From the IMG/VR virus record IMGVR_UViG_3300002122_000002: a stretch of 64,000 nt of DNA. The stretch is one strand, 5' to 3'. The DNA comes from an uncultured virus (IMG/VR IMGVR_UViG_3300002122_000002) (Duplodnaviria; Heunggongvirae; Uroviricota; Caudoviricetes). The translations under genes and the position numbers were made by a program. The notes beneath the pieces are model-generated. The model was not told where the DNA came from. It saw only the letters and a list, made by a program, of their open reading frames with translations, and made no database searches. Below are positions 1-15,651 of the stretch, one piece after another. Numbering within the stretch: the stretch's first letter is position 1; the number at the start of each line of letters is the position of its first letter.

Positions 1-49
1 GTACCCCGGTGTCTTCAGCACCATGCTCTACCATTTGAGCTAGAGCCGC
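1..49 (-). tRNA. tRNA-Phe(GAA), 3' part beyond window edge
   Basis: Revcomp GCGGCTC-TA-GCTC-AAATGGTA-GAGC-A-TGGTG-CT GAA GA-CACCG. Confidence 0.85.
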
Positions 50-50
50 A

Positions 51-126
51 TGGGGTGCCAGAGGAGAATCGAACTCCCGTAATCTGGTTCACAGCCAGAC
101 GCCTGAGCCACTCGGCTACTGGCAAC
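51..126 (-). tRNA. tRNA-His(GTG) with G-1 and encoded CCA
   Basis: Anticodon arm TCTGG-CT GTG AA-CCAGA; T-loop TTCGATT; 3' CCA. Confidence 0.92.
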
Positions 127-130
127 ATGT

Positions 131-202
131 ACAAGTCCCACGTCCTGCATTTAGACGATGACCCGATGGGCCAGAGTGTCGCTCACCCATTTTGGGACCC
201 GT
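131..202 (-). ncRNA. Circularly permuted tRNA-like structure (putative)
   Basis: 10-bp closing stem ACGGGTCCCA/TGGGACTTGT encloses a T-like arm, a loop-closed acceptor-like stem TGGCCC-ATC-GGGTCA and a Glu/Gln-type D arm GTC-TAAATGCAG-GAC. Confidence 0.4.
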
Positions 203-277
203 TGATAGGCTTTGCACACAACCCCTGCCTTCTATACGATCTATAATCCTCGGGCGGGCGGTACCTATCTTGAGTCA

Positions 278-366
278 GGCGGAGAGTGAGGGAGTCGAAC
301 TCTCAATACGGGTTTCACCGTACTACACTTTTCAAGAGTGCTACACACGCCGATGTTAGACTCTCC
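278..366 (-). tRNA. tRNA-Ser(TGA)
   Basis: GGAGAGT/ACTCTCC acceptor, GCACT-CT TGA AA-AGTGT, long variable arm, G73. Confidence 0.9.
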
Positions 367-369
367 GAG

Positions 370-442
370 TACCCCGCCGTCCTATAGGTTGGCGGAGCCT
401 TGCTATAAGCCGCCCAAGATGATAGCAACAAAATGGGCGGTC
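370..442 (-). ncRNA. Pseudoknot + hairpin motif, copy A (strand assumed from tRNA operon)
   Basis: CCGCCCA/TGGGCGG crossed by TTGCTAT/ATAGCAA, followed by hairpin CTCCGCC/GGCGGGG; homologous to 2160-2243. Confidence 0.55.
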
Positions 443-443
443 A

Positions 444-517
444 GGTCGGGAATGCAGGGATCGAACCTGCTACCACACCCTTCCAAGGGGCGCATGCAAC
501 CGTTACACCTATCCCCG
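444..517 (-). tRNA. tRNA-Pro(TGG)
   Basis: CGGGGAT acceptor, CGCCC-CT TGG AA-GGGTG, TTCGATC loop. Confidence 0.92.
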
Positions 518-565
518 ATAATTGCTGTGCCGTTTTTAAAGTGGTGACACAGGTTGAGGCCACTA

Positions 566-641
566 GGTACTCTCGGTAGGGTATGATCCTACAGTCTCCG
601 AGTTAGAAGCTCGGCGCGGTATCCATTTTTGCTACGAGAGC
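566..641 (-). tRNA. tRNA-Arg(TCT), variant T-loop
   Basis: CCGAG-CT TCT AA-CTCGG; T arm GTAGG-ATCATAC-CCTAC. Confidence 0.85.
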
Positions 642-642
642 A

Positions 643-740
643 TGGTTAACTGAGCATGGAGAGAGGTCACTCCGACATAGTAGCAACCGTCTCCGCTACT
701 ACCCTCTGGCTTATGGTTTTCCCTGTCATATGCTCAGTCA
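643..740 (-). ncRNA. Rod-shaped RNA ending in ACCA (putative)
   Basis: 11-bp terminal stem TGACTGAGCAT/ATGCTCAGTTA followed by ACCA; inner stems AGAGG/CCTCT and GTAGTAGCGG/TTGCTACTAT. Confidence 0.5.
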
Positions 741-814
741 GGTACAGGACCCCCGATTCGAACGAGGAATCTACGCTTTCAGAGAGCGGCGGCTTACCGT
801 TCGCCTAGTCCTGT
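741..814 (-). tRNA. tRNA-Gln(CTG)
   Basis: ACAGGAC/GTCCTGT acceptor; CT CTG AA loop; TTCGAAT. Confidence 0.9.
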
Positions 815-933
815 ATGAGCCTGCTCGGCCCTTTTCGCAGCAATGGGCCAGTAGATTAGGCTGAAAAAGCAGACGATGAAAGCGCGCCGGGTAATCTCAC
901 ACTTTGGTACCCTGGTTTAGAGTGGGCGCGCTA

Positions 934-1015
934 GGTGGGTCCTGGTAGAGTCGAACTACCCTCGCCCGAAGGCAACTGTTTTACAGACAGCGTAGCGTCC
1001 ACCGCCGTAAGACCC
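934..1015 (-). tRNA. tRNA-Tyr(GTA)
   Basis: GCTGT-CT GTA AA-ACAGT, long variable arm GCC-TTCG-GGC. Confidence 0.88.
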
Positions 1016-1016
1016 A

Positions 1017-1091
1017 TGGTTCAATCGGCTGGATTCGGACCAACATCCTCGGGTTCAAAGCCCGGTGGCCTGCCAATTAGCCTACGATTGA
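1017..1091 (-). tRNA. tRNA-Gln(TTG)
   Basis: TCAATCG/CGATTGA acceptor; CT TTG AA; CCA encoded. Confidence 0.92.
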
Positions 1092-1095
1092 ATGT

Positions 1096-1183
1096 GCAGC
1101 CCGGCGTCCCGCTTATCAGCAATTACGGGTCTCGATACTGGCTTGCTGGCTGACGAGCATCCTTCTCAGTTCCGCCGGGTTGC
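1096..1183. ncRNA. Structured element closed by an 11-bp inverted repeat, just downstream of an internal promoter
   Basis: GCAGCCCGGCG...CGCCGGGTTGC terminal stem with internal CCCG/CGGG stem; no credible ORF. Confidence 0.35.
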
Positions 1184-1198
1184 TTTACTACTATCTTT

Positions 1199-1226
1199 AT
1201 ATTACCACATCTTTCGGTCTTGTCAA
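1199..1226 (-). promoter_or_regulatory. sigma70-type promoter inside tRNA array
   Basis: TTGACA-16 nt-TAATAT with TG extended -10. Confidence 0.65.
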
Positions 1227-1239
1227 GTACCAGTTTCTA

Positions 1240-1313
1240 GGAGCGGGTGGGGAGATTCGAACTCCCGACATTCAGTTTGGAAAACTGACGTTCTACCACT
1301 GAACTACACCAGC
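1240..1313 (-). tRNA. tRNA-Gly(TCC)
   Basis: TCAGT-TT TCC AA-ACTGA; TTCGAAT; U73. Confidence 0.92.
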
Positions 1314-1319
1314 ACGTTT

Positions 1320-1520
1320 CTATTTCAGATAAGAACTATGTCTAATTAGATATTCATGCATAGCTTTGGCAAATCCTGGGGGAGCATATTCTGATTGCAT
1401 GGCTTTTAACTCCTCATCTGAGAAGTTGTAGGTTACATGATCTGCCCCCGGATCATTGGCTTCCGTAGTAAGGATGCCGGTTAGTAATGGATCAGTAGCG
1501 ACACGTATCACTATATTCAT
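1320..1520 (-). CDS. Hypothetical protein (66 aa, MNIVIRVAT...) embedded in tRNA array
   Basis: AGGAG RBS ahead of ATG at 1520; the longer track ORF runs through tRNA-Gly and is spurious upstream. Confidence 0.6.
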   Translation of the reverse strand: MNIVIRVATDPLLTGILTTEANDPGADHVTYNFSDEELKAMQSEYAPPGFAKAMHEYLIRHSSYLK

Positions 1521-1543
1521 TTGTAACTCCTTTATAATAGACA

Positions 1544-1617
1544 GGAGCGGAGAGCGGGATTCGGACCCGCGACATTCTCGTTGGCAACGAGACATTCTAC
1601 CACTGAATTACCCCCGC
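1544..1617 (-). tRNA. tRNA-Gly(GCC)
   Basis: TCTCG-TT GCC AA-CGAGA; T-loop TCCGAAT. Confidence 0.92.
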
Positions 1618-1618
1618 A

Positions 1619-1693
1619 TGGAGCCAGTGTTGGGGCACGATCCCAACTTTCGAACTTACCAAGTTCGCGTGTCGCCGCCTACACTTCACCGGC
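1619..1693 (-). tRNA. tRNA-Thr(GGT)
   Basis: CGAAC-TT GGT AA-GTTCG; T-loop ATCGTGC; CCA. Confidence 0.85.
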
Positions 1694-1694
1694 A

Positions 1695-1770
1695 TGGAGC
1701 TTCGGGCGGGCTACGATCCCGCGGCCCCCGCTTTACGAAAGCGGTGCTCTGCCAACTGAGCTACCAAAGC
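1695..1770 (-). tRNA. tRNA-Thr(CGT)
   Basis: CCGCT-TT CGT AA-AGCGG; T-loop ATCGTAG; CCA. Confidence 0.9.
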
Positions 1771-1771
1771 A

Positions 1772-1847
1772 TGGAGCCGCCGACTGGATTCGAACCAGCT
1801 TATTCCATCTTACAAGGATGGTCCACGTCCTAACGTGGTCCGGTGGC
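1772..1847 (-). tRNA. tRNA-Thr(TGT)
   Basis: CCATC-CT TGT AA-GATGG; TTCGAAT; CCA. Confidence 0.88.
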
Positions 1848-1851
1848 ATCA

Positions 1852-1925
1852 GGTCTTACCGGGTGGATTTGCACCACCGCTACCGCCTTCGCAGGGCGGG
1901 GTCTTGTCTACTCGACTACGGCAAG
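1852..1925 (-). tRNA. tRNA-Arg(GCG)
   Basis: CTTGCCG/CGGTAAG acceptor; CCGCC-CT GCG AA-GGCGG; T-loop TGCAAAT. Confidence 0.85.
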
Positions 1926-1926
1926 A

Positions 1927-2003
1927 TGGAGTGCTCGGTCAGGTATGATCTGACAATTTCCGCGTTCGAAGCGCGGCGTCGTATCCGTTTGGACTACGAG
2001 CAC
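1927..2003 (-). tRNA. tRNA-Arg(TCG)
   Basis: GTGCTCG/CGAGCAC; CCGCG-CT TCG AA-CGCGG; T-loop ATCATAC; CCA. Confidence 0.88.
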
Positions 2004-2079
2004 ATTGGGGCCGTAACGTGGCCCGGGCGGAGGACTTTCCTTTCCCCGTTAGGGTACTCGATGCGCGCCTCAATCCGCA

Positions 2080-2155
2080 GGTGGACCTCGCGAGATTCGG
2101 ACTCGCAACCTCCCCGGTGCAAGCGGGGCGCTCTCCCAATTGGAGCTACAGGCCC
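2080..2155 (-). tRNA. tRNA-Ala(TGC)
   Basis: G3:U70 pair, TGC anticodon, T-loop TCCGAAT. Confidence 0.92.
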
Positions 2156-2159
2156 ATTT

Positions 2160-2243
2160 GCCCCACCGTGTCATTCCGGTGTCTAACACGGGGGGGACTT
2201 GCGATTAGCCACCCACAATGAATCGCAACAAGATTGGGTGGTT
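2160..2243 (-). ncRNA. Pseudoknot + hairpin motif, copy B
   Basis: CCACCCA/TGGGTGG crossed by TTGCGATT/AATCGCAA, then hairpin CCCGTGT/ACACGG; covaries with copy A. Confidence 0.55.
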
Positions 2244-2244
2244 A

Positions 2245-2319
2245 GGCACTCAGCCGTGGATTCGAACCACGAACTCCCAAGTTAACAGCTTGGTACTCTG
2301 CCAATTGAGTTAGCCGAGT
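2245..2319 (-). tRNA. tRNA-Asn(GTT)
   Basis: CCAAG-CT GTT AA-CTTGG; TTCGAAT; G73. Confidence 0.92.
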
Positions 2320-2361
2320 GTATAAGGCCGGGGTTTACCGCCCTTAACCGGCCAAGGGCGA

Positions 2362-2433
2362 GGCGAAGGTGGAGGGAATTGAACCCCCTCGGCAAGGTTT
2401 TGGAGACCCGCCCGGTCCATACCTGTCACCAAC
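2362..2433 (-). tRNA. tRNA-Trp(CCA), degenerate acceptor/D arm
   Basis: CT CCA AA loop, GGGGG-TTCAATT-CCCTC T arm; two U-U mismatches in acceptor. Confidence 0.7.
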
Positions 2434-2438
2434 GTTTA

Positions 2439-2518
2439 GGAAGACAAGGGCCGGAATCCCACCGGCCCACATCACGCACGAGCTAATAGTCGTTGGAGCG
2501 TCACAGTAGTGCCTTGTC
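2439..2518 (-). ncRNA. D-armless tRNA-like element (putative)
   Basis: 7-bp acceptor GACAAGG/CCTTGTC plus T-like arm GCCGG-TGGGATT-CCGGC; preceded by the CCA-T junction used between tandem tRNAs. Confidence 0.45.
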
Positions 2519-2744
2519 ATGGTTGTCGGAGGAGGAGCTGCCTCGGTAATCTGCTTTGGCGTAACCCCCGGCATCACCCACATCGAAGTTGACAGTTCAG
2601 CCGCCCGGAGTACTGCCACCCGCCGGTGGCCCGGTTTACTCAGGGAACCCTGCCCCGCTAAGGGCTAGGCTCAACCATATAGGCCCGTGGAGCGACCCAC
2701 GGCTTCGGCAAGGGTTTAGCAGGTAGCTGTCTACCTACACTATT

Positions 2745-2773
2745 ATAGTACCATACTTTGTATTGGTTGTCAA
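2745..2773 (-). promoter_or_regulatory. sigma70-type promoter heading the tRNA operon
   Basis: TTGACA-17 nt-TACTAT with TG extension. Confidence 0.75.
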
Positions 2774-2780
2774 GAGGCAA

Positions 2781-3278
2781 CTACTCTCCTCCAAGTAGGG
2801 GTGGAGATGAGTGGCCCGCGGCCACGAAAGAAACGTTTATGCTTCTTGAAGCGTCAAGAGGCAGTTTTCTTAGGTATTCTAACAAGTCTTTTTCACCATT
2901 AAATACCTTATCTGCCATGAGATACATCACGTCAAACCGCTCTGGCTCTTCTGGATAGACTATGTAGCATTTACAGCCGCGCCCAATGAGATAACCTAGT
3001 TCTAGGTGTCCACTTTTTCCGGCGGGTAATAGGAGGATGCCTATGTCTGACTGGTCTAGGTGGCGCATGTCAAATCTGAATACATGGTCGGCGGCGTACC
3101 CTTCTAGAGCTTCTCTAAAGTTATGCCCCCGGGCTTTTTCATAGTCTCTCCAGGCGTCGTCGGCTAGTTCTCCGGCGGCATACCAGTCATCAAACACATC
3201 AAATTCTAGTTGTCTTAGGTTCTTGGCTAACTCTGGTACTTTTGGGTTTCTTAGGCTACCTATTAGATAGATTTTCAT
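2781..3278 (-). CDS. Nucleoside 2-deoxyribosyltransferase / nucleotide N-hydrolase-like protein
   Basis: KIYLIGS N-terminus, D...LDQSD..ILLLPAGKSGHLELGY motif with catalytic Glu. Confidence 0.8.
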   Translation of the reverse strand: MKIYLIGSLRNPKVPELAKNLRQLEFDVFDDWYAAGELADDAWRDYEKARGHNFREALEGYAADHVFRFDMRHLDQSDIGILLLPAGKSGHLELGYLIGRGCKCYIVYPEEPERFDVMYLMADKVFNGEKDLLEYLRKLPLDASRSINVSFVAAGHSSPPLLGGE

Positions 3279-4834: not shown

Positions 4835-5138
4835 CCATTCCTTCTTTCTCGGTATCCCAAAGCTCTCTCGTTCCCTTCCAGTCTTCAATAGCTTGTAGAC
4901 GAATAGTTCTTGCTTCTACTAATCGTCCCTCCCAGCCGCCGGTATTTGCCTGTACCTTTTCATGGCATTCATGGCAGACAGGAACGCTATTCAGGGGGTC
5001 ATCCCGCCAATTACGGTAGGTAGACCTTGGTTTGATCTCATGGAGGGTGACGGCGGGGGCATAGTTCAGAATACAGGGAGGCCCTTCCGCACCCTTTGGT
5101 GTCCAGAAATCCCATACCATTTCGTAAAATGTGCTCAT
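4827..5138 (-). CDS. HNH endonuclease-like protein
   Basis: HEIKPRS...N..PVCHECH. Confidence 0.7.
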   Translation of the reverse strand: MSTFYEMVWDFWTPKGAEGPPCILNYAPAVTLHEIKPRSTYRNWRDDPLNSVPVCHECHEKVQANTGGWEGRLVEARTIRLQAIEDWKGTRELWDTEKEGMDE

Positions 5139-5216
5139 TTTGCCCTTTGTTTGCGAACAGTAAACTAAGTACCAAGGGTTTCACCGGCTCAACTTACTGA
5201 TATTGTAGCATGTTTT

Positions 5217-5891
5217 TCAGGAAATGTCAAGCCCTAGTAGCCAATTGGGTGCAATTATAGGTTCCGCGATGCGAATATCTGAGTACCAAACAGTCGGGTC
5301 GTCTGGCTTCATGTATAGGGAGCGTGCGTGTACTATGAGATTATCCATGTTTTCGCCTATGAAAAAGACATACAGCCGGCCATACCATCCTTGTTCTGAT
5401 AGGGCTTGGAGTAGCTCCTTGAGTGGGCCAAAGAATGCGTCGGCTTCTTCATCGCTGGGCGTTACTTTTGTGTCATATAGTGATAGTCCTAGGCAGATTT
5501 GGCCGGCGGACCCTGTTACTAGCTCTGTGGCTGGGCATATATCAAAGAACGTTAGTTTACCCGTTACCATAAGGGGGTTATCTTGGATTTTGGTTCGAGT
5601 TGCATCAATTAGAGTCTGTGCGCCTTCTGGTAATGCTGGTAGGGGTGTTGGGCTTGGCCGTGGCGTTGGGCTTGGCCGTGGCGTTGGGGGTAAGGTTGGC
5701 TGGGGTGTTGAATCGGTAGGAATTGGTGTTGGTTCCCCTATGATTATGTGGATTGGTGGGATTATGCCCATTTCAGTTAGTTTATGGAAAGCCACAACTA
5801 GACTGAACCCTATGGCAGTGATTACGAATAGGCCTTTGAAGGTGTCTATCCAGCTAAATAGTCTGTTGTCTCGTCTTATTGGGTCGTTCAT
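5217..5891 (-). CDS. Membrane-anchored protein with Pro/Thr-rich linker
   Basis: N-terminal hydrophobic helix, PTP(RPS) repeats, RBS and own promoter. Confidence 0.7.
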   Translation of the reverse strand: MNDPIRRDNRLFSWIDTFKGLFVITAIGFSLVVAFHKLTEMGIIPPIHIIIGEPTPIPTDSTPQPTLPPTPRPSPTPRPSPTPLPALPEGAQTLIDATRTKIQDNPLMVTGKLTFFDICPATELVTGSAGQICLGLSLYDTKVTPSDEEADAFFGPLKELLQALSEQGWYGRLYVFFIGENMDNLIVHARSLYMKPDDPTVWYSDIRIAEPIIAPNWLLGLDIS

Positions 5892-5944: not shown

Positions 5945-6302
5945 TAGTATTATGAGGGTAGGGAGCACCCCGCTCCCATCTCTCTCCTTTGAGTCGCCGC
6001 ACGTGCATCCCCTGCCTTGCGGCGCTCGTATTTTAAGCCTTGGGTCGTGTCAAGTCACATATATATTACTGGTGAGTGGTGGCCGCGCGCATATAAGTTT
6101 CAGATATTGATGATAACTATTCTGTTGGGTTTTCTTAGGTAAAAGATTTAAATAGGTTGTAGTGTTTAGATTATTCTTTTTTCATTACATCTTAAACAGC
6201 GATAATGTTCGGGTCTATAGAGGATTTTTCCTGATTTTGTACTAAATTGGGCGGTTTTAAATAGCCACCAGTCGTGTCCTACTATTAAGCAGATTAGGTT
6301 TT

Positions 6303-6686
6303 TCATTGGTTTTCCATTAGAAATTTGCGGATTAGGATTGTAAGTTCTAGGGTTGTATATCCATGTTTTACGATCATTAGTGGTATTTTATTAAGCTCCG
6401 CCCAAGCTTTTTTTTGTTGTGTTCTTTCTAGTTCTGGTTTAGTTGGGCGGCTGTCCCAGTATCCTGGTTCGAAATCGAATAGGATTAGATTGTCATTATG
6501 TTGGCCGGCTAGATCGAACCAATGCCAGCGATTTGCTATTTCATCCCATAATCCTTCGGCTGGCCATTCTCTTTGGATATCTTTAAGGCCTGCTTGAAAT
6601 GCTGCTACTGTTAGTTGTAGGAGTTCTCGTCGGGGAAATTCTCTCATTCTATTGTGGTGTATATGGCTAGGGGTTGTTTTGGTCAT
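6303..6686 (-). CDS. Hypothetical protein, possibly restriction-endonuclease-like fold
   Basis: REW...FDLA...ILFDFE.GYW...KKAWA...IPLMIV resembles DUF559/PD-(D/E)XK pattern. Confidence 0.45.
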   Translation of the reverse strand: MTKTTPSHIHHNRMREFPRRELLQLTVAAFQAGLKDIQREWPAEGLWDEIANRWHWFDLAGQHNDNLILFDFEPGYWDSRPTKPELERTQQKKAWAELNKIPLMIVKHGYTTLELTILIRKFLMENQ

Positions 6687-7084
6687 GATTTGTATACATG
6701 TTTTATGTAAAGTATGTTTTTATTGTGAGAATTGTGGTTTATGAAAGAGCCAGTTAGTTTTTGCCATTTTTGTTTTATTAAACTATCTTTAATGTTTGTT
6801 TGCCATTGTGCAGCTAAATAGATTATAGCTGATTTTCTTTTTATTTTGGTTATTTCATATATTATTTTGAAGGCCAGTTCTTTATCTTTTTCTGTACTGG
6901 CAAAAAAATATAGTTCAGATGCAATGAATGTGCCACAAGTATTAGGAAAACTTTGGAGCATTATTTGGAAAATTTTTTGTTGATTTTTGAAAATGGTGTA
7001 TTTATTTCTATATGATTGAATAGTTGTGTTTTTTAGGTTTAATTTATTTTTTATAGCTAAAATTTGTTGATCTGTTAATGACAT
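6683..7084 (-). CDS. Hypothetical protein (possible degenerate GNAT-like fold)
   Basis: Long ORF in island; FPNTCG motif and terminal W..LTGSFINHNS.N...LY pattern; fold is a guess. Confidence 0.5.
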   Translation of the reverse strand: MSLTDQQILAIKNKLNLKNTTIQSYRNKYTIFKNQQKIFQIMLQSFPNTCGTFIASELYFFASTEKDKELAFKIIYEITKIKRKSAIIYLAAQWQTNIKDSLIKQKWQKLTGSFINHNSHNKNILYIKHVYKS

Positions 7085-7151
7085 TTAATACCCCCGCCTA
7101 CGCCGTTTTTCATGTCTTCAATTAGTATTTCTATTGTTTCTTGGTCTGTGC

Positions 7152-7802
7152 TCATATTGGCAACCTGAATAGATATTTGATTAGGTTGGGAGCTTCTGCA
7201 AATTCACGTATGTCTTCAGGATGACATTGTACAGCTCTTACTTTGTCTTGTAGATAGTCTATTTTTGTATCTGATTCTATTCCTTCTATTACTTCGGTAA
7301 GTGGATCAAATAGAGTTGCTTTTAATTCAGTTCCTATTTCTCGGATGGCTTGGTGATGATAACTATTGACTTCGAATCTGAGTTCTTTTATATATTTGGT
7401 GATTTCTGAGTTTGGGAATGGGGTGACATCATGTCTTATTTCGTGTCCTTTTTTGATTGCGTTTAGGTCTTGATGAAGAGTTCCATTGAAGATTGTATTG
7501 AGGAATTGATGGCCGCGACATATTCCCACATATTTGGTTCTTTCATTTCTCATGTATTGTAGTGCTATGGTTCTTTCTATGAGGTCTCTTTGGAGATTGT
7601 AGTGAGTATACCATTCTGGACGTTCTCCGTATAGGTATGGAGTTACGTCTGCGCCGCCATCGAATATGATGAGGTCTATGTTTCTATTGATTTTGCTGTG
7701 ATGTGAGATTCTGGTTATTTGTAGATCATTAATGAATGGTTTGAGTAATTTTTGCCATCGGGTTCGGGGTATCATTCCTGTATCGGTTATTCCTATTAAC
7801 AT
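7152..7802 (-). CDS. Class I glutamine amidotransferase / peptidase C26 (gamma-glutamyl hydrolase-like)
   Basis: GGADV, GICRGHQ, NSYHHQA, VQCHPE triad motifs. Confidence 0.93.
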   Translation of the reverse strand: MLIGITDTGMIPRTRWQKLLKPFINDLQITRISHHSKINRNIDLIIFDGGADVTPYLYGERPEWYTHYNLQRDLIERTIALQYMRNERTKYVGICRGHQFLNTIFNGTLHQDLNAIKKGHEIRHDVTPFPNSEITKYIKELRFEVNSYHHQAIREIGTELKATLFDPLTEVIEGIESDTKIDYLQDKVRAVQCHPEDIREFAEAPNLIKYLFRLPI

Positions 7803-8531
7803 TTAATATACTCCTGGGTAAAGTATGTTTAGTATTGCTTTGTAGGCGTAGTCGTATCCTATTGATTCTCTTATTTGGTGATTTTTTCTATAGTGTTGCA
7901 TTGCGTTTATTGTTGTCTTTTTGTTTAATTTCTTGTTAGGTTTACCAAAGATTGAGATGATGTTTTTGAAATATTCATCGGTGACTTCTGGGTGTCTGCT
8001 TAATCCACTATAGATGGCGTGAGAACTCCAACCTTCTTTATTAAAGGTGTATAAATCTTTTACGATTGTGACTATATTTGTTCGTTTACTAGTGGTAGGT
8101 AATTTTTCTAGTTTACGTATGTATTCAAAATCTATACTTCTTAGTAATACTCCGATTATGATGAATCCTATTTCTTCTAAGTTTTTGTCTATATCTTCGT
8201 TTATTGAATGGATTTCTACAAGGATGTAGTCTGAATTTAGATTTGTGTAGTTAATTGTGAATGTGTTTTTGAATATTTTTTGTAGGCTTTTTAGGGTTGT
8301 AAAGTATGCTATTTTTGTTTTTGCAATTTTCTTTAATAGGTATACCATGTTATGCTTGTCTTGCAATACACTTTTGAGTCCCGCAAAACATGCGAGTTGA
8401 CCTAATGTGTCTATTGAGTGGCCGTAAATTACAGAATAAGATATTCGATATTTGTCCACTTCAATCATTTCTTTTAGATGTGTATTATTTAGGAGTTGCT
8501 TTTTATATTCTTTTTTGTCCATGTTAGACAC
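7803..8531 (-). CDS. Hypothetical protein
   Basis: 242-aa ORF in AT-rich DNA, tightly coupled to neighbours. Confidence 0.7.
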   Translation of the reverse strand: MSNMDKKEYKKQLLNNTHLKEMIEVDKYRISYSVIYGHSIDTLGQLACFAGLKSVLQDKHNMVYLLKKIAKTKIAYFTTLKSLQKIFKNTFTINYTNLNSDYILVEIHSINEDIDKNLEEIGFIIIGVLLRSIDFEYIRKLEKLPTTSKRTNIVTIVKDLYTFNKEGWSSHAIYSGLSRHPEVTDEYFKNIISIFGKPNKKLNKKTTINAMQHYRKNHQIRESIGYDYAYKAILNILYPGVY

Positions 8532-9460
8532 CTTTGTAGTAGAGTTGTTGCTATAGTTTTATTTAGTGTTCGGATTGTTTTGTGCATTAATGGTATATCT
8601 TTTTCAAAGTGGGTGATGAATTTATCTCCCATGTCTTTTTCAATTACTGTAGCTGCAATGTCTAGTAAATGAAGAAGATTGTTTGTCATGTTTGGATAAT
8701 TTGTCCAAGAATTGGAAAGTGCTCTGTATTCTATTCCATATGTTTTTGGTTTTTCTTTGTAGAATTGCAATCTTATTCTACCTGGTTTTCCATAGTAGTT
8801 TAGTCTGAACTTTTCTAGCTTTCTAGTTTGGGTAGGTTTGGCGAATGATACGTTTCCTAATCCAGCTAGGAAGTCAAATACTATAGATGCTTTAGCCCAG
8901 TTATCTAGATAGATTTCGGGATTTTTTGTTGGTGCTTGGATGTGGATATGGCCGCCACCATAACGATATTTATGTGTTTCTACGTTTAATGTGTGTTTAT
9001 TTTCTGGATCATCTAGACCTAGTTCTATGTATTTATAAGGAAATTCATCGGGATCGCAACCGAAGATTACGCAACTTCGAAAGTCTTCATTTCTTTTCTT
9101 CCAGTATTTGTTTAGGTTGAAAAAGCCTACTGGAAAAGCTGTGGTTGCTTCTAAATTGAATTGTGAAAGGAAACTATTGAGTTCAATTTTTGCAAGAGCA
9201 ATTCTTGATAAGAATGTTGCTGAATCGTTTGTTGGATTCATTTGAAGTTCTATTGCTGCACCATCTTCTGACCATTGAAATTCTTCTGTTTTGATTAGTA
9301 CATTTTTACCTTTTATGGTTTCGTAGGTTGCTCCGAAGTCATGTACTAGTGCGATTGGAGGAATTATGTTTGGAATTAATCCTAGTTTTTCATCTTTTAT
9401 GAATTTGTCGAAGATGAATGCTTCTGGGTCTGTTCCAAAGATATGGTTTAGGTTATTCAC
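8489..9460 (-). CDS. phiEco32-like COOH-NH2 ligase type 2
   Basis: GTDPE, EDGAAIE, FGCDPD, RYGGGHIH, YGKPGRIR, YGIEYRALSNSW motifs. Confidence 0.88.
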   Translation of the reverse strand: MNNLNHIFGTDPEAFIFDKFIKDEKLGLIPNIIPPIALVHDFGATYETIKGKNVLIKTEEFQWSEDGAAIELQMNPTNDSATFLSRIALAKIELNSFLSQFNLEATTAFPVGFFNLNKYWKKRNEDFRSCVIFGCDPDEFPYKYIELGLDDPENKHTLNVETHKYRYGGGHIHIQAPTKNPEIYLDNWAKASIVFDFLAGLGNVSFAKPTQTRKLEKFRLNYYGKPGRIRLQFYKEKPKTYGIEYRALSNSWTNYPNMTNNLLHLLDIAATVIEKDMGDKFITHFEKDIPLMHKTIRTLNKTIATTLLQRCLTWTKKNIKSNS

Positions 9461-9869
9461 TTCGTTTCCAGTTTAGATCGTTTAAAGTTACTTTTACGAT
9501 TACTGTTTCTTCTTTCATTTTGTGTTTTTTCTTTATGTCATCTGGAGTTGTGTTAGATTTTTCTTGTACGAGATTATTCCAAGGTCGATCAGGAAATAGG
9601 AATATTTCGGCGTCAGATGCCTTTATTACTTTGTCATTTGTATTTGACCAGATGTATATTTCGTCTATTGATTTTACTTTTCTGCATGAATCACATCTAT
9701 AACTTATAATTTCTATAAGTGGATTTATGGCTGTTGTTCCATAGGCTTGTAGTTTTAGTTCGGCGGGGTTATTTTCAGATAGTATAAGTCTTACTTGTGA
9801 GTTTAGATTTTTAAGATTGATTTTTATGGATAGTGTGTGGTGACATTTATCGCAGATTAAGTTTATCAT
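9453..9869 (-). CDS. Zn-ribbon-containing hypothetical protein
   Basis: CDKC ... CDSC pair. Confidence 0.65.
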   Translation of the reverse strand: MINLICDKCHHTLSIKINLKNLNSQVRLILSENNPAELKLQAYGTTAINPLIEIISYRCDSCRKVKSIDEIYIWSNTNDKVIKASDAEIFLFPDRPWNNLVQEKSNTTPDDIKKKHKMKEETVIVKVTLNDLNWKRSE

Positions 9870-9872
9870 TAT

Positions 9873-11060
9873 TTATGCTCCTTCAAGAAGAAGGACTTGT
9901 CCTTTGATTTTATCAGACAATTTTTGTTCGTAGTCATAGCATAGATTGACTTTTTCAAATGTTGGTTGTTCTTCTTCTAGAAATTCGGAGACTATATTTT
10001 TTTCATTGGTGCTTAATGTTACATCATCTTCTAGTACTAACCATAGTTCTTCTTCATCTATGTAGGCGTACTTGAAATCTTTTGGTGTTAGGTTGATGAT
10101 ATTGTCTTTCATTTTTAATGTTATTTCACAATCGGGTACTACTAGTTCTGTAGCTACTAATGCTTCTATTGNTTCATCTGCGGATAAGTCCTTGCTTAGT
10201 AGTTTTGATAATGGCTTTATGTATGTTGTTAGATGAGCGAATTTGTCTGTTGAGATAGTTTTGTGTATGGTTAGTGTCTTGTCTGGTGTTGTTGTAGTTT
10301 CTTTTTGGGGTATGGTGGGATTGGAGTTAACTGCTGCAAATAATTTTATTAGTTTCTTGGTAGAGATGTCTTTTATGTATTTTTCATTAAAGGTTGTGGG
10401 TACATGTAGTAGTAGGTTTTTGTCTTTTAGTGATTTGTACATATATTCGACATTTGAAATTATAGATAGATTAATATTTAAGTTGCTTTCCAGAATGTTC
10501 ATCATTAGTACTAGACCGTTTATGGTTATTTCTTCATGAGTTTTGGTTTGGGTTACTGGGATATCTTTGTCTGCATATTTGTCTAGTATTAACAGGATTG
10601 TAGCGGGAGTTAAATAGGGTTTGTAGATTTGTATAAGTTCATTTCCGATAGTGATTAGAAATCCCCTGTGATCAGATTGTTTTGTTATGGCTTGTGTTAA
10701 TGTAGCTAATGTAAGTGGTTTCAGGCTGTNAGTTAGTGTTGAAGTAGCCATCCATTTTGAGTTGAAGCCATTTTTTATTTTGTATGCTATTGGTTCTATG
10801 GAGGTATTGAAAAGTATTTTCTCCATTGTTGCTATGTTTCTTATTGTGAAGTCTTTGATTTTGTTTAGTTCTAATTTGCTTAGTGGAATTTTTGATTGGA
10901 TCACAATTTCGTTTTTGTCGAATGAACTTGCTATGGGATATTCTAGGCTATGAGTTGAGTCGATTTTACAATCGCCCCATTTTTCTAATGAATGGATTAC
11001 GCCATTGAATTCATTTTCTGGCGGATTTACTAATGTTTGTAGGGATATGGTAGGTTGCAT
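9873..11060 (-). CDS. Hypothetical protein
   Basis: 395-aa ORF in AT-rich DNA, operon-coupled. Confidence 0.7.
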   Translation of the reverse strand: MQPTISLQTLVNPPENEFNGVIHSLEKWGDCKIDSTHSLEYPIASSFDKNEIVIQSKIPLSKLELNKIKDFTIRNIATMEKILFNTSIEPIAYKIKNGFNSKWMATSTLTXSLKPLTLATLTQAITKQSDHRGFLITIGNELIQIYKPYLTPATILLILDKYADKDIPVTQTKTHEEITINGLVLMMNILESNLNINLSIISNVEYMYKSLKDKNLLLHVPTTFNEKYIKDISTKKLIKLFAAVNSNPTIPQKETTTTPDKTLTIHKTISTDKFAHLTTYIKPLSKLLSKDLSADEXIEALVATELVVPDCEITLKMKDNIINLTPKDFKYAYIDEEELWLVLEDDVTLSTNEKNIVSEFLEEEQPTFEKVNLCYDYEQKLSDKIKGQVLLLEGA

Positions 11061-11061
11061 T

Positions 11062-11832
11062 TTATATTACCTGATTTAAGTGTTGAGCGTATAGTTCTAG
11101 AGTATTTGCGTTAAGGCCTGGTGCTGTGTTGATTTCCCAGATGATGTATTTTTTGTGTTCGTTTGACCATGCCATATCGAATGCGCCGAATCCTAGATTT
11201 ATTTGTTCTGCTATGTCATGTACTAGTGTTTTTGCTTGTTTGAATCTTTCTTCGTCATTTTCTGGTTTGATGCTGTAGTGCCAGCCAAGTCTGGCTGTTC
11301 TTATGGGTATTTCTGGTTTTTCATTTTGTGGGTGTTGCTTTAGGAATATTCTAATTATATTTTTATTTATATAATGTATTCTAATTTCATATTCAGTTGG
11401 AAAGAATTCTGTCCAGTATTCGTGATTGAATTCGTTATCGTATAAGTAGTCTGGATTGTAGGCAATTAGTATGTCGTTTCCTGCTCTGTGATATTTATTT
11501 CTTAGTAGTACTGGATAGTCCTTAGGATAAGTTAGATTATGTTCTATATTGATGTCGTTGTATATAGGACTAAGTATATTGTTGTTTTGGCAAAAATTTG
11601 AAAACGCCAAGCTGTTTGAGCAAAGTTGTATTACGGAGGTGGAGTTGAAGTTTGTATCTTGTTTGTGTGGTACATGGGAGTTTCCGTATCTTATTTTGAT
11701 TGGTAATCTTTTTGATAATCTCGCAATTGTTATGTCGTTCTTTATTGGTCTTAGGTTTAAATGCTTGGCTAGGGCTTTTGCTGAAATGAATGATTGTTCG
11801 TTGAAGACCAATAGCCCTTTGTAGTTATTCAT
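11062..11832 (-). CDS. ATP-grasp ligase (RimK/YheC-D-like, phiEco32 type)
   Basis: H.AG.DI loop, EYEIRIH, GFGAFD, WEINTAPGL (ExNxxPG). Confidence 0.88.
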   Translation of the reverse strand: MNNYKGLLVFNEQSFISAKALAKHLNLRPIKNDITIARLSKRLPIKIRYGNSHVPHKQDTNFNSTSVIQLCSNSLAFSNFCQNNNILSPIYNDINIEHNLTYPKDYPVLLRNKYHRAGNDILIAYNPDYLYDNEFNHEYWTEFFPTEYEIRIHYINKNIIRIFLKQHPQNEKPEIPIRTARLGWHYSIKPENDEERFKQAKTLVHDIAEQINLGFGAFDMAWSNEHKKYIIWEINTAPGLNANTLELYAQHLNQVI

Positions 11833-11833
11833 T

Positions 11834-13003
11834 TTATAGTGGGTATGATTTTTGTAGTTTCTTTAATGTGTTGTTGCTATTTAGAGTGTAAGGGAACTCT
11901 ATGTTTTTTGCTTGGTAGAGTTTTCTTTTGTCTGTTTTTTTGGTTAGAGCAATCCAAGTTTCAGTTTTGTTTTTATTGTAGTATTGTTTGTCTAGATATT
12001 CTAGGAATTGTTGAAGTTGATGGATTTCTGTTTCATCTAGTATGAAAATGTTTTTGCCGAGGCAAACTTCTGAGATTACTTGTAGTTCGGTATATGAGAT
12101 GTTAAGTTTGGCTAGCAAAGAGATTATTGGTTTATTGTCTTTTTGGTAATAATAAGTTGGTTGTTGTCGGTGGAATATGGTTACTGCGGTTTGTTTGTTT
12201 TCTGCTTTCTTTGTGGGGATTTCTTCAATGATTTCTGGGTATGCGTATGATCCTATTTTGTAGTTTAATATTTTTAAATCTGGGATTTTTTCTATTTCAT
12301 ATGTGATTTTGGTTTCATCTGCTAGGTCTAAGAAGCTTTCGATGATGCGTGCGATATAGTTTAGTTCGAATTCACCAGTGTTTATAATGATTCCTATAGG
12401 TTCTTTTTGATGATAGAAGGTGCAGCTATTTAGAGTTTTCTTGTCATCTTTTACTATGAATACTTGATTTTTTACTCGTTTATCTATTAGCATTAGAGCA
12501 TAAGTTCCATACCAATGATCTAAGGTTTTAAGTATGTGTTCTTTGGTTAGTGGCGGGTTTTGTTCAACGAAATGTTCTAGTGTATTTAAGAAGTTTCTGC
12601 TATCTGTGTTGTTTACATTTATTAGGTGTTGTAGTTCTTTATTTTCTTTATCGAATTTATTGATTTCTAGTGTTCCATTATGTATCTGGATTAAGTTTCC
12701 ATTGATTACTGGATGAGAATGTATAGGATCGTTTTTGGGCTGTCCTGGGCTACAGGCTCTTACATGATATAATCCGTTTATGTTTTTGTTGGGTTTTAGG
12801 AGTTGTGTTTTATTATCTGTCCACCAGTTTTGTGCACTTTCTTTTGTTTTAATAATGTTATCTAAATTAGAGAAGCAGACATATCCAAAACCATCGTTGT
12901 TGGCGAAGGTGGATATTCCAACTGTGTTGATTTCAGTTAATGGCCTGATTATCAGTTTAGCCAGGCGTTGATCTTTGAATTCAATGAGAGTTAGTTGGCA
13001 CAT
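11834..13003 (-). CDS. Class II (Ntn) glutamine amidotransferase
   Basis: N-terminal Met-Cys, NNDGFG, HVRA, HP, HNGT, TDS motifs. Confidence 0.9.
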   Translation of the reverse strand: MCQLTLIEFKDQRLAKLIIRPLTEINTVGISTFANNDGFGYVCFSNLDNIIKTKESAQNWWTDNKTQLLKPNKNINGLYHVRACSPGQPKNDPIHSHPVINGNLIQIHNGTLEINKFDKENKELQHLINVNNTDSRNFLNTLEHFVEQNPPLTKEHILKTLDHWYGTYALMLIDKRVKNQVFIVKDDKKTLNSCTFYHQKEPIGIIINTGEFELNYIARIIESFLDLADETKITYEIEKIPDLKILNYKIGSYAYPEIIEEIPTKKAENKQTAVTIFHRQQPTYYYQKDNKPIISLLAKLNISYTELQVISEVCLGKNIFILDETEIHQLQQFLEYLDKQYYNKNKTETWIALTKKTDKRKLYQAKNIEFPYTLNSNNTLKKLQKSYPL

Positions 13004-14166
13004 TATTGTTCGTCGTCTATGTCTGGATTTTCGTTTAGAAATTTTTCTACGTCATTTTCATGATCTGGGTCGTTGTTTCTTTCTGCATTTCTTACATCAA
13101 TTATTTTTGGTTCTACAATTTTTGTTTTCTTTGGTAGTGGAGTTGGTGCATATATTTCTGGGTCAAGTCTAGTTGGTTCTTCTAAATGGGAATACATCCA
13201 TTTGTTGTCAAAAATGGGTGTTGGAGATGTTTCCCATATTTCTATCAGTGTATTTAGAGTTGCTTCGTCTAGGTTTAGTGTTTCTATTCGATATATGAAT
13301 TCTCTTGTTGATATTGTTTTGTTGTCGGCTAATGGTAATGGATCAATAAGTTGGATGTCTGATGTGCTAAAGGCTCTTTTTACTATTGCTTTACAGAAGT
13401 TTGTCCAAGCTATGATATATCTGGGGTTTAGTGTTTTGTTGGCAGTTCTGAATTCTAAGGAGCCTTGAGTTAAGATTGGATAAAAATTTACACTCATGTA
13501 TCTGGGTGTAATGTATTTGGCTCCGTTTTCTGCTAAGTGATAGGCATTTCCGTATCTTGTAAAGAATTGCTGTATTGAGGTTGATTCAAGTAGGTCTTTT
13601 GGATTTAGAATTGGGTAATTTATGGTTCGTATATTTATTACTGGAGGACCATTTCCTAGATATGGTCTGCAGTAGGCATATTGATTTTGCTCGCCGCGTT
13701 GGCGTCTGCCCATCCCACCTAATCTGAATAGAATTGCTTCATATTCTAGTGTTAGTTTTAGGAGGTTTAAGATTACATATAGTGGGGCTTCTCGAGATAG
13801 ATTTATATGAACGTGGAAGCTTGCTCTAGGTGTGTCTTCTATTTCTCCATATTCTTTAAGTATGGAGCATAGTTTGTGAATTTCAAGAATCCAATCTGGT
13901 GAAATTGTATCTATGATTGGAGAAGCTAGTTCTCCACCAATGACTATTTTATTTGTTAAGTTTTCAAGTAGTTGTCTTGCTTTTTTGGTATCTAGTGTTA
14001 TTTCATGGTTTCCTATTGCGAAGATTGGTGTTTCACATGAAGCGTCATGTCCTAGTTTATAATTTCTTAGGTTAGTTCGTATTCTAGATATGAATCTAGG
14101 ATCGGTTCTGTTTATGTTCATGAATTCCATTTCAATGCCGACGCTATCGATTATTTGTTTAGCCAT
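13003..14166 (-). CDS. Putative amidoligase (glutamine synthetase-like COOH-NH2 ligase, Amidoligase_2 type)
   Basis: VGIEME, HDAS, GELASP, SFHVH, RY..VN, GSLEFR motifs. Confidence 0.88.
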   Translation of the reverse strand: MAKQIIDSVGIEMEFMNINRTDPRFISRIRTNLRNYKLGHDASCETPIFAIGNHEITLDTKKARQLLENLTNKIVIGGELASPIIDTISPDWILEIHKLCSILKEYGEIEDTPRASFHVHINLSREAPLYVILNLLKLTLEYEAILFRLGGMGRRQRGEQNQYAYCRPYLGNGPPVINIRTINYPILNPKDLLESTSIQQFFTRYGNAYHLAENGAKYITPRYMSVNFYPILTQGSLEFRTANKTLNPRYIIAWTNFCKAIVKRAFSTSDIQLIDPLPLADNKTISTREFIYRIETLNLDEATLNTLIEIWETSPTPIFDNKWMYSHLEEPTRLDPEIYAPTPLPKKTKIVEPKIIDVRNAERNNDPDHENDVEKFLNENPDIDDEQ

Positions 14167-14431
14167 GGGTGCATTTCATGCAGATGAGTATTGGGAGGCC
14201 ATGTGGGCAATTTGGGTGTGTTAGTTCATTAGGGCAAATTGTGCATAGATCGAGGGGTATACCATGTTCGCAGTCGTCTAGTTTGGCTATGTCTTCTATT
14301 ATGGCTTTTAGTCGGTTATTGTTGTTTGGTGTATCACATTCATAGAGTACGTCATTATCGTCTAGATTGTATTCGAATCCAAATAATTGCATTATTTTTT
14401 TATTGTTGCGACGAGTTTCTATAAAGTTCAT
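14159..14431 (-). CDS. Small Cys/His-repeat protein
   Basis: CEHG...CTIC and CPHG...CMKC tandem repeats. Confidence 0.6.
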   Translation of the reverse strand: MNFIETRRNNKKIMQLFGFEYNLDDNDVLYECDTPNNNNRLKAIIEDIAKLDDCEHGIPLDLCTICPNELTHPNCPHGLPILICMKCTHG

Positions 14432-14465
14432 TTTAGAAAGGGAAGTGGTTTTGTTTTTTTGTTAG

Positions 14466-14681
14466 TTAAAAATTTGCATGAGCCCATATTAAATTACAAA
14501 TATGTGAGTCAAATCTATTTGTAGGGATTTTATAGGGATATTCCATTCCAGCAATTGCACTTAAACAAAACCATGCTTCAGATTCTATAAATGCTTCTCT
14601 ATTATGACCTTCTGGATGTGTTAATATTAATGTAGAATCTGTAGGACCTTCTTTACCTAGAGAGATTGTCCAATTAGGCAT
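14466..14681 (-). CDS. Hypothetical protein
   Basis: 71-aa ORF in AT-rich DNA. Confidence 0.5.
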   Translation of the reverse strand: MPNWTISLGKEGPTDSTLILTHPEGHNREAFIESEAWFCLSAIAGMEYPYKIPTNRFDSHICNLIWAHANF

Positions 14682-14726
14682 TTTTTTTCTTTTTTGGTTA
14701 TTTTAGGTGTCTTTTTATGTTTTTTA

Positions 14727-14801
14727 GGTAGACCAGGATGGAATTGAACCATCTGTAAGACGGTTATAAGCCGCCTGCCGCGCCCGTTTGGCTTCTGGTC
14801 T
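14727..14801 (-). tRNA. tRNA-Ile(TAT), solitary
   Basis: AGACCAG/CTGGTCT acceptor; GCC-AAACGGGCGC-GGC D arm; GGCGG-CT TAT AA-CCGTC; GATGG-TTCAATT-CCATC; A73, CC. Confidence 0.88.
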
Positions 14802-15075
14802 GTGGTTGTTCTTTAAATAGTTTATCTGCGGCTGCTTGTTTATCTGCTTCAGATGCAAGCATTTCGCACATGGAACAAATGCCGGCGTGAATTACTCGGA
14901 TATTGTCGATTTTTGCTCCATTTTCTATTTTGTCTGTGACTAGGAGTATTACGTTGGTTGCCTTGTTTTTCATGCAATGAAAGCAGCCTAATGTGCCTGC
15001 GGCGATTCTTTCTTGTGCAAGTTCAATGCCTTTTAGTATTTCATTTAAGGCATCTTCTTCGGATACGAGTGTCAT
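14764..15075 (-). CDS. Hypothetical protein (CxxC...CxxC); 3' end overlaps tRNA-Ile
   Basis: CFHC and CSMC; stop codon TAA lies in the tRNA anticodon loop. Confidence 0.6.
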   Translation of the reverse strand: MTLVSEEDALNEILKGIELAQERIAAGTLGCFHCMKNKATNVILLVTDKIENGAKIDNIRVIHAGICSMCEMLASEADKQAAADKLFKEQPQTRSQTGAAGGL

Positions 15076-15076
15076 G

Positions 15077-15289
15077 TTATTCAGCGTTTAGGTCTATTGC
15101 GTGAGCGTAATCTCGAGTTGTATGAAATATTAGTGGGTTGCCATTTAATACTTCTGATGTGTGGCTGTCAGGTTGTTCAGATTCTTCGGCTCCACATTTT
15201 GGGCATTTAAGTCTTAGGTTTTTTGAGTGAATGTAAGCATTTTCGCATTCACAGTCCCAAAATAGGTCGTTGGTAAATGGTTGTGTCAT
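15077..15289 (-). CDS. Zn-ribbon hypothetical protein
   Basis: WDCEC..YIH...CPKCG..QPDS. Confidence 0.65.
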   Translation of the reverse strand: MTQPFTNDLFWDCECENAYIHSKNLRLKCPKCGAEESEQPDSHTSEVLNGNPLIFHTTRDYAHAIDLNAE

Positions 15290-15540
15290 TAGATTCCTTG
15301 CCAGTGGGCCGTTTTTCTGAATAGCGCCCAGAGTAGTTTTATTCTGCTTGGATAGAGATCAGTTACTAGCCAGTAGCCCATAGAATGTTGAGCTGCGAAC
15401 CATCGGCCATCATAGATTTGTATGATTCCTGTTCTTAGTGGTTTGAGGTCTTCGAGGAATCCGGCTTGGATTAGTAGTGTTTGTTCTGCTACTGAAGGTG
15501 ATTTTGGGAATTGTTTGTGTTTGTAGAATGAGTAATTCAT
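15289..15540 (-). CDS. Hypothetical protein
   Basis: Coupled ORF, start taken at MNYSF. Confidence 0.55.
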   Translation of the reverse strand: MNYSFYKHKQFPKSPSVAEQTLLIQAGFLEDLKPLRTGIIQIYDGRWFAAQHSMGYWLVTDLYPSRIKLLWALFRKTAHWQGI

Positions 15541-15651
15541 TTTGATAGGGCGTAGTAAATTAGCCCGGCGCTCCATATTAGGGTTAGTAACCACGGGTTT
15601 GTGGTGACGATGAAATAGAAGATGATAGCGGGGATTGTTGCCCAGATTATG

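Follow-up and report, generated by a model that had tools for sequence, protein, structure and literature searches.

Several kinds of structured RNA offer themselves for comparison with folded elements in phage tRNA arrays. Type III antitoxin RNAs such as ToxI and CptI are knots of 35–45 nucleotides (nt) with short helices, occurring as tandem repeats beside a toxin gene, and phages can mimic them. Phage HK022 has a pair of paralogous structured RNAs, putL and putR, each about 70 nt long and acting in cis, the fold of which was inferred from compensatory differences between the copies; they consist of two simple stem-loops, are situated immediately downstream of promoters and target RNA polymerase. 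The tRNA region of phage T4 is known to transcribe two small non-tRNA RNAs, RNAC and RNAD, the role of which is unknown (PMC3014915, PMC9697503). Theta ribozymes are minimal ribozymes of the hepatitis delta virus (HDV) type, more than 80% of them from gut phages, with the cleavage site within ±5 nt of a tRNA 3′ end; their catalytic C opens J4/2, and most tRNAs associated with them do not encode CCA (PMC10879173). The coremin motif (xrRNA-C) is described as a first hairpin (hp1) with a 4- or 6-nt loop of the type YGAD or YGNNAD, followed by a spacer of about 10 nt that contains CUAC, with about three knot pairs and a second hairpin just downstream that is kept in structure and not in sequence (PMC10321173). 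A literature search returned, among the papers listed, nothing relevant on a knotted motif in phage tRNA arrays. We describe here two such elements, termed A and B, which lie directly behind tRNA-Pro and tRNA-Asn in the tRNA array of an uncultured Caudoviricetes phage (IMG/VR record IMGVR_UViG_3300002122_000002; the 64,000-nt stretch that was analyzed is referred to as the window). As judged from sequence comparison, A and B represent a genuine structured RNA cassette that is under selection, is not catalogued and has a very narrow distribution.

Element A (positions 367–443, minus strand) is the entire 77-nt gap between the tRNA-Pro and tRNA-Ser genes, and element B (2156–2244, minus strand) is the entire 89-nt gap between tRNA-Asn and tRNA-Ala; about 1.8 kb separates the two. 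Both copies have the same layout. The upstream tRNA is followed by U-R-A (U-G-A in A, U-A-A in B), the 5′ arm of a first helix (S1, 7 nt), a loop of 5–6 nt, the 5′ arm of a second helix (S2, 7–8 nt) and a loop of 5 nt; then come the S1 3′ arm, a loop of 2–3 nt and the S2 3′ arm and, after a further 1–2 nt, a GC-rich hairpin (the clamp) and 4 nt (ACUC in A, AAAU in B) that lead into the next tRNA. The S2 5′ arm lies inside the S1 loop, which measures 17 nt in A and 19 nt in B, and the two interleaved helices, S1 of 7 base pairs (bp) and S2 of 7–8 bp, make up a knot core of 44–46 nt. Read on the minus strand, S1 of element A consists of CCGCCCA (434–440) and UGGGCGG (410–416), and its S2 of UUGCUAU (422–428) and AUAGCAA (400–406). 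The corresponding arms of element B are CCACCCA (2235–2241) and UGGGUGG (2209–2215) for S1, and UUGCGAUU (2221–2228) and AAUCGCAA (2199–2206) for S2. The clamp of A (371–398, minus strand) has 8 bp including two G·U pairs, plus an inner 2 bp (−17.2 kcal/mol), and that of B (2160–2198, minus strand) has 13 pairs with one C·U mismatch and one U·G pair (−19.8 kcal/mol). When the cores are aligned (alignment A4) they are 87% identical by column; the clamps share structure and place and have no alignable sequence. A and B thereby appear to be paralogous copies of a structured-RNA cassette in which a knot is followed by a GC clamp hairpin.

The calculated energy of S1 is −13.0 kcal/mol in A and −10.5 kcal/mol in B, and that of the S2 arms as a duplex is −5.9 and −8.2 kcal/mol, respectively, values that would allow S2 to form in addition to S1. 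In H-type knots, a third loop of 2–3 nt cannot cross a 7-bp helix within a coaxial stack. As the third loop of A and B is only 2–3 nt long, S1 and S2 cannot stack as in a classical H-type knot and must either pack next to each other, in the manner of HDV P1 and P2, or form in alternation.

Evidence for selection on this fold was obtained by comparing both copies. None of the 14 aligned pairs departs from standard pairing in A or in B (28 of 28 cells), and each helix contains one double compensatory change, G:C to A:U in S1 and U:A to G:C in S2; all four stem substitutions are hence compensatory. When, as a control, the 3′ partners were slid by 1–3 columns, 32–50% of the cells were paired and covariation was absent. 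A shuffle control on the same alignment gave 135/500, which is uninformative with two sequences only. We also simulated neutral change by placing 9 random substitutions on the 44-nt core, and the outcome of zero disrupted pairs together with at least two double changes was reached at a frequency of 4.6e-4 in 1,000,000 trials. Perfect, compact interleaved repeats of 7+7 are not in themselves rare: shuffled windows contain a mean of 0.295 (both strands), with at least one in 28 of 200 shuffles. The window itself includes two further ones, at 55934–55966 (plus strand) and at about 13921 (minus strand), both AT-rich and inside open reading frames (ORFs), which are probably due to chance. Because the repeat as such is not rare, the case rests on homology, compensatory change and position. 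With respect to position, four related arrays have 49 post-tRNA spacers with a length of 30 nt or above, and A and B are the only two in which a compact knot begins no more than 8 nt from the tRNA end. The comparison of both copies indicates that A and B are under selection for the fold in both helices. The original prediction, made from the letters of this stretch, had proposed two homologous elements right after tRNA-Pro and tRNA-Asn, with covariation in both stems; both proposals hold, and the minus-strand letters are as it had given them.

The same prediction had left the strand ambiguous. S1 and S2 contain Watson–Crick pairs exclusively and no G·U pair; the three G·U pairs of the clamp hairpins (two in A, one in B) turn into A·C mismatches on the plus strand. 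The folding energy of the minus strand is −31.6 kcal/mol for A and −32.7 kcal/mol for B, versus −28.0 and −32.0 kcal/mol for the plus strand. Given the G·U pairs of the hairpins, the better folding of the minus strand, the orientation of the tRNA genes and two promoter matches on the minus strand (see below), the sequence identifies the tRNA (minus) strand as the RNA strand.

The left end of the window carries 16 tRNA genes called by ARAGORN, all on the minus strand. Element A is preceded by tRNA-Pro(UGG) (444–517; Rfam RF00005, 48.2 bits), the 3′ end of which is N73-C-C followed by U and not by A, and tRNA-Ser(UGA) (278–366) lies directly downstream of it. Element B is preceded by tRNA-Asn(GUU) (2245–2319; 3′ end N73-C-C, then U), and the gene directly downstream is tRNA-Ala(UGC) (2080–2155), both of them called by ARAGORN and Rfam. 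The nearest virus record, G001 (L050), has 82% of sampled words in common with the window and contains the full array, 32 tRNAs in 4.5 kb (L050 3019–7534), which is the same array as that in window positions 1–2319. In G001, the letter following the tRNA is U in 30 of 32 cases. The 13 tRNAs with an encoded CCA are each separated from the next tRNA by a single nucleotide. In the 19 that end in CC, a U occupies the position of A76, most often as the first letter of UGA, UAG or UAA. This arrangement suggests one precise 3′ cut before U, with A76 being added afterwards. Elements A and B keep to it with their U-G-A and U-A-A. Comparable 4-nt spacers are found elsewhere in the window array (UGAU) and in relatives (UGAU or UAAU), and S1 starts where the next acceptor stem would begin at such 4-nt junctions.

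Two sigma-70-like promoter matches were found on the tRNA strand, each a consensus match only. One lies upstream of the array (2745–2773, minus strand; TTGACA-17-TACTAT with TG) and is probably the start of a precursor containing B. The other is internal (1199–1226, minus strand; TTGACA-16-TAATAT with TG), is probably the start of a precursor containing A, and has a similar sequence in the relative L138. These two observed matches compare with 1.7 expected. No promoter-like or terminator-like site was found within A or B, and no terminator-like site adjoins them.

Both elements were compared with catalogued RNA families, a check that the original prediction had called for. At gathering scores, Rfam 15 matches only tRNAs, and of the 25 matches obtained at E≤10 over positions 1–3000 none overlaps A or B. 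When A and B were used alone as queries (91 and 101 nt, E≤10), the best scores were far below threshold: 16.2 bits for A (gathering 55, E 0.95) and 14.3 bits for B (gathering 39.8, E 0.32). The best sub-threshold families differ between A and B, and some of them match on the opposite strand. No known family was therefore matched, even at E≤10. A tRNA or tRNA-like identity was rejected, as ARAGORN made no call in A or B under default or relaxed (-ps80) settings and RF00005 did not match at E≤10; the relaxed setting did recover odd tRNAs in relatives as well as a tRNA-Trp missed in the window.

To determine the distribution of the cassette, relatives were sought by means of the terminase gene and of the gene for an SNF2 helicase located after the array. 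Covariance model R1, run on the window with filters off, finds only A (69.8 bits) and B (74.1 bits). It was then run over 48 whole virus records from 79 terminase relatives plus G001, a set from which closer terminase relatives (81–87% identity) were left out; strong matches occur in G001 only, and one weak match (E 0.016) falls in a locus without tRNAs. When the model was applied to 21 metagenome loci, matches were confined to L135 and L136, which are near-identical. The copies in G001, L135 and L136 are letter-identical to A and B and have equal bit scores. Pattern scans gave the same picture. In IMG/VR, the S1-S2-S1′ pattern returned 47 loci, none with the S2 3′ arm among the matches listed; the S2-S1′-S2′ pattern with the covarying letters left free returned 0 loci; and a pattern of fixed loops and S2 ends with free S1 returned 44 loci, in 0 of which a 7-nt S1 arm was present, the best being two loci with a 6-nt S1 arm, both without the S2 inner pairs. 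In GTDB genomes, the S2-S1′-S2′ pattern returned 39 loci, 0 of which have the S1 5′ arm.

The array itself has a restricted distribution. Among five near-complete or near-identical records, three have no tRNAs and two have one or two, and the array is for this reason considered lineage-specific. A syntenic array was found in three relatives, L138 (helicase 69% identical), L147 (54%) and L151 (53%). The gap between tRNA-Pro and tRNA-Ser(UGA) is 1–3 nt in all three, and that between tRNA-Asn and tRNA-Ala is 4 nt in two of them, L138 having a 619-nt ORF-bearing insert instead. Upon blastn comparison of the G001 array with the three relatives, none of the 39 matches reaches into A or B beyond 1–3 letters. 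Since the tRNA pairs abut in syntenic relatives, A and B are best explained as insertions gained by one phage lineage at two tRNA junctions. Contigs from four DNA sequencing runs covering positions 1–2800 show no variant letter within A or B. Twenty of the 21 sequencing runs listed contain this stretch in DNA data, and no RNA run with it is among them.

We tentatively favor the reading that A and B are a structured spacer cassette in the tRNA precursor, which would be excised by the tRNA-processing enzymes and serve as nuclease-resistant punctuation or persist as a stable small RNA. According to it, the cassette would be transcribed on the tRNA strand within a polycistronic tRNA precursor. RNase P would cleave at the 5′ end of the downstream tRNA, at a distance of 4 nt from the clamp, these 4 unpaired letters being the leader, while the tRNA 3′-end enzyme would cut in the short single-stranded linker N73-CC-U-R-A that precedes S1. 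A tRNA-sized RNA of 77 or 89 nt would then be released, with a stable structure closing both of its ends, the knot at the 5′ end and the clamp at the 3′ end. In the precursor, the fold would act mechanically as punctuation, confining the cuts to the linker and keeping the neighboring tRNAs from mispairing, and it is predicted to stop exonucleases or scanning endonucleases; the stable small RNA may be a by-product or the purpose. The location of the elements agrees with this reading: both copies start right after N73-CC-U, end 4 nt before the next tRNA and lie on the strand of all 16 tRNAs; promoter-like sites precede them on this strand, and no terminator-like site was found in or next to them. 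That the clamp is preserved in structure and place rather than in sequence points in the same direction, and the small RNAs from the T4 tRNA region provide a precedent (PMC3014915, PMC9697503).

Several points weigh against it. The relatives do without the cassette at the same tRNA junctions, so it is not required for tRNA processing as such. The covariation rests on two sequences, which are paralogs in one near-clonal lineage. With a third loop of 2–3 nt, S1 and S2 may form in alternation and not together. Finally, the cassette is known here from DNA, and its resistance to nucleases is a prediction.

An alternative that we consider unlikely is that the released knot and hairpin act in trans, as a small RNA or decoy that binds a defence nuclease, a type III toxin or an enzyme that reads acceptor ends. 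A ToxI-type decoy and a ribozyme were both among the suggestions of the original prediction, and neither is supported here. An array of 32 tRNAs is commonly read as an answer to tRNA-directed defences, which would suit such a role, as does the fact that the sequence is under selection though relatives process the same tRNA pairs without it. The elements also resemble tRNA ends. The R/Y difference between the S1 5′ arms (CC-R-CC) recurs in the clamp 3′ arm (GG-Y-GG; GGCGG in A and GGUGG in B, where the U lies opposite a C inside the hairpin), and it is seen again around the discriminator base of the tRNA that follows (CCGCC for tRNA-Ser, CCACC for tRNA-Ala). Moreover, the clamp 5′ arm of A is identical to the last 7 nt of tRNA-Ser(UGA). 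This acceptor-end likeness was, however, recognized post hoc, the best alignments of the clamps with tRNAs reach only the 95th percentile of shuffles, and about 10% of mismatched leader/tRNA pairs share 5 complementary letters. Pairing of leaders with tRNA 3′ ends as an array-wide rule was rejected, as 3 of 16 leaders in G001 have at least 5 complementary letters, to be compared with the 10% of the mismatched controls. The decoy role is further weakened by the absence of tandem repeats, a feature of type III antitoxins, from A and B, which are single copies far apart, and by a domain scan covering 58 of 93 candidate ORFs, in which no ToxN-like, RNA-ligase or reverse-transcriptase domain was detected.

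The likeness to tRNA ends may equally reflect an origin from such ends by recombination. A and B could accordingly be a recombination scar or selfish insertion, useless to the phage, in which pieces of tRNA ends and GC palindromes were copied between junctions, the pairing being maintained for the sole reason that tRNA-like pieces left unpaired would interfere with the way neighboring tRNAs fold; this too we hold to be improbable, at about the level of an unlikely alternative. Both elements are insertions relative to the three relatives, and the junctions do accept other inserts, those of 619, 446 and 431 nt in L138 and a small ORF (1314–1543) in the window. The inserts end in 5-nt inverted repeats (CCGCC..GGCGG in A, CCACC..GGUGG in B), and the clamp 5′ arms align with tRNA 3′ ends, that of A with tRNA-Ser(GCU) at 14 of 15 letters and that of B with tRNA-Glu(CUC) at 15 of 17. 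On the other hand, the homologous core (S1, S2 and the loops) is not tRNA-like, ARAGORN finding nothing there even when relaxed, and compensatory change that arose twice independently, once in each helix, speaks for selection on the core itself. No target-site duplication is visible at A or B, and no further copies were found in the window, the relatives or the IMG/VR and GTDB genomes scanned.

It is distinctly improbable, in our estimation, that the cassette stands for a new class of functional RNA at tRNA ends, either a minimal two-helix knot that cleaves itself or stalls nucleases, or an acceptor-end decoy. In the latter form, the S1 arm and the clamp would copy the CC-N73-CC end of the downstream tRNA (with G for tRNA-Ser and A for tRNA-Ala) and present it, already paired, to a host enzyme or a defence nuclease.

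A self-cleaving ribozyme, belonging to a new class or radically reduced from the HDV type, which would cut at its own 5′ end and thereby free the 3′ end of tRNA-Pro or tRNA-Asn, is very doubtful. As in theta ribozymes, the elements are located at a tRNA 3′ end, S1 starting 4 nt after C75 of tRNA-Pro and tRNA-Asn, and the tRNAs concerned lack an encoded A76, as do most theta-associated tRNAs (PMC10879173). The interleaved helices follow the HDV order P1-P2-P1′-P2′, and in both copies a C comes after the S1 3′ arm, where J4/2 would begin, although there is neither P4 nor P1.1 to define J4/2. The original prediction had remarked on the theta-like position and on the lack of room for the P3/L3 core, and the latter remark is borne out: A and B have 5 nt (CAUCU and CAUUG) where P3/L3 belongs and 2–3 nt (CUU and CU) where P1.1, P4 and J4/2 belong. 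Because of these lengths, membership in the HDV/theta family is excluded. S1 begins with C, 3 nt beyond the U, and not with a G1 at the junction; few unpaired positions are left for an active site; and no HDV-like or other ribozyme model of Rfam matched at E≤10 with the two queries described above. The G001 array has 17 further CC-ending tRNAs in the CC-U context that have no such element next to them, so that these ends are evidently produced by a host enzyme. The environment differs as well, theta ribozymes coming mostly from gut phages and the sequencing runs that contain this phage being labelled soil and groundwater. Still more remote is a DNA-level signal, in which the interleaved inverted repeats would be bound by protein or folded as single-stranded DNA, for instance as a recombination or replication site: the perfect Watson–Crick arms of S1 and S2 could pair in DNA on either strand, but two sites for one protein should keep their half-site letters instead of covarying, the clamps, with their three G·U pairs, pair better on the tRNA strand, and no integrase, HUH or transposase domain appeared among the ORFs scanned.

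The array and its surroundings yielded further observations. A tRNA-Trp(CCA) gene (2362–2433, minus strand) was missed by default ARAGORN and by the Rfam gathering score and is called at a relaxed threshold; a weak Rfam tRNA-clan match (2364–2434) lies over it, and L138 and L151 have a tRNA-Trp at the corresponding place, before tRNA-Asn. The roughly 300 nt between this gene and the promoter-like site upstream of the array (2434–2745, minus strand) have strong predicted folding, the 461-nt piece 2320–2780 reaching −173.5 kcal/mol, and the stretch before tRNA-Trp (2434–2745; L050 2578–2778) is 73–74% alike to its L138 counterpart; a further leader RNA or a small ORF may lie there. The spacer that follows tRNA-Ser(UGA) (126–277, minus strand) starts with UGACUCA and is common to L138 (76% over 84 nt), its start also to L151; it would be another candidate for a conserved spacer RNA and, in contrast to A and B, predates this lineage. 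Between two tRNA-Gly genes, the spacer 1314–1543 (minus strand) has a Shine–Dalgarno-like AAGGAG, an AUG and a small ORF; no Pfam match was obtained for the 91-aa frame overlapping it. The ORF-bearing inserts at tRNA junctions of L138 are located at 5015–5633, 6357–6802 and 7270–7700, and those after tRNA-Gln and tRNA-His begin with similar peptides; they resemble small mobile genes that exploit the same junctions. The array of L151 includes a suppressor-type tRNA (7217–7289) with anticodon UUA, which reads UAA and hints at stop-codon recoding in that phage.

That the window is a phage genome is shown by genes for the terminase large subunit (28113–29765) and the major head protein (42150–43154), and small ORFs are densely packed in it. 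The structural module contains an ORF of 2692 aa (33063–41141, plus strand). A block of low GC content (33–40%) at 6000–16000 encodes amidoligase-like, COOH-NH2 ligase-like and peptidase C26/GATase proteins; a nucleoside deoxyribosyltransferase-like gene (2781–3278) lies near it, and the N-terminal domain of a dATP/dGTP diphosphohydrolase is found at 61785–62132. From the domains predicted, these genes together look like a toolkit for DNA base modification.

Phage tRNA arrays are usually annotated as tRNAs separated by meaningless spacers. The spacers A and B are selected, knotted, uncatalogued and gained at two junctions, which suggests that arrays can carry extra RNA cargo riding on the tRNA-processing machinery. 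What is new here is the resolved strand, the status of the elements as lineage-specific insertions and the finding that copies occur only in near-identical phages. Should the knot block nucleases or mimic tRNA ends, it would provide a small, naturally occurring module for stabilizing RNA and would point to new phage–host RNA biology; should it be punctuation only, recognizing it would still aid the correct annotation of tRNA arrays. The reach is so far narrow, namely one phage lineage.

With regard to the known systems, A and B share with coremin, including its Watson–Crick variant, a hairpin loop that pairs with sequence just downstream, and their clamp, located 1–2 nt after S2 and kept in shape without sequence likeness, recalls its second hairpin. 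They differ from coremin in the S1 loop of 17–19 nt, in an S2 of 7–8 Watson–Crick bp and in having neither a YGAD-type loop nor CUAC in either core; the target of coremin, Xrn1, is moreover eukaryotic. With the downstream hairpin in agreement, and loop size and CUAC in disagreement, identity with xrRNA-C was rejected. ToxI and CptI differ from A and B, which are two single copies 1.8 kb apart in a tRNA array with helices of 7–8 bp and no Rfam match; the combination of tandem repeats and a toxin gene was not found, as the copies are distant and the domain scan detected no ToxN/AbiQ-type Pfam domain. The resemblance to the put RNAs of HK022 is of another kind: A and B are likewise two paralogous structured RNAs in one phage with compensatory differences between the copies. 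The RNAs of T4 are longer, about 120–140 nt, and to our knowledge they are not known as knot-plus-hairpin cassettes. Blastn against the phage collection showed no sequence relation to them, the best 25 of 100 alignments covering tRNA parts only, and megablast against the same collection gave no match. Like RNAC and RNAD, A and B would be non-tRNA RNAs made from the tRNA region of a phage, and by context the closest analogues of the cassette would include these two T4 RNAs.

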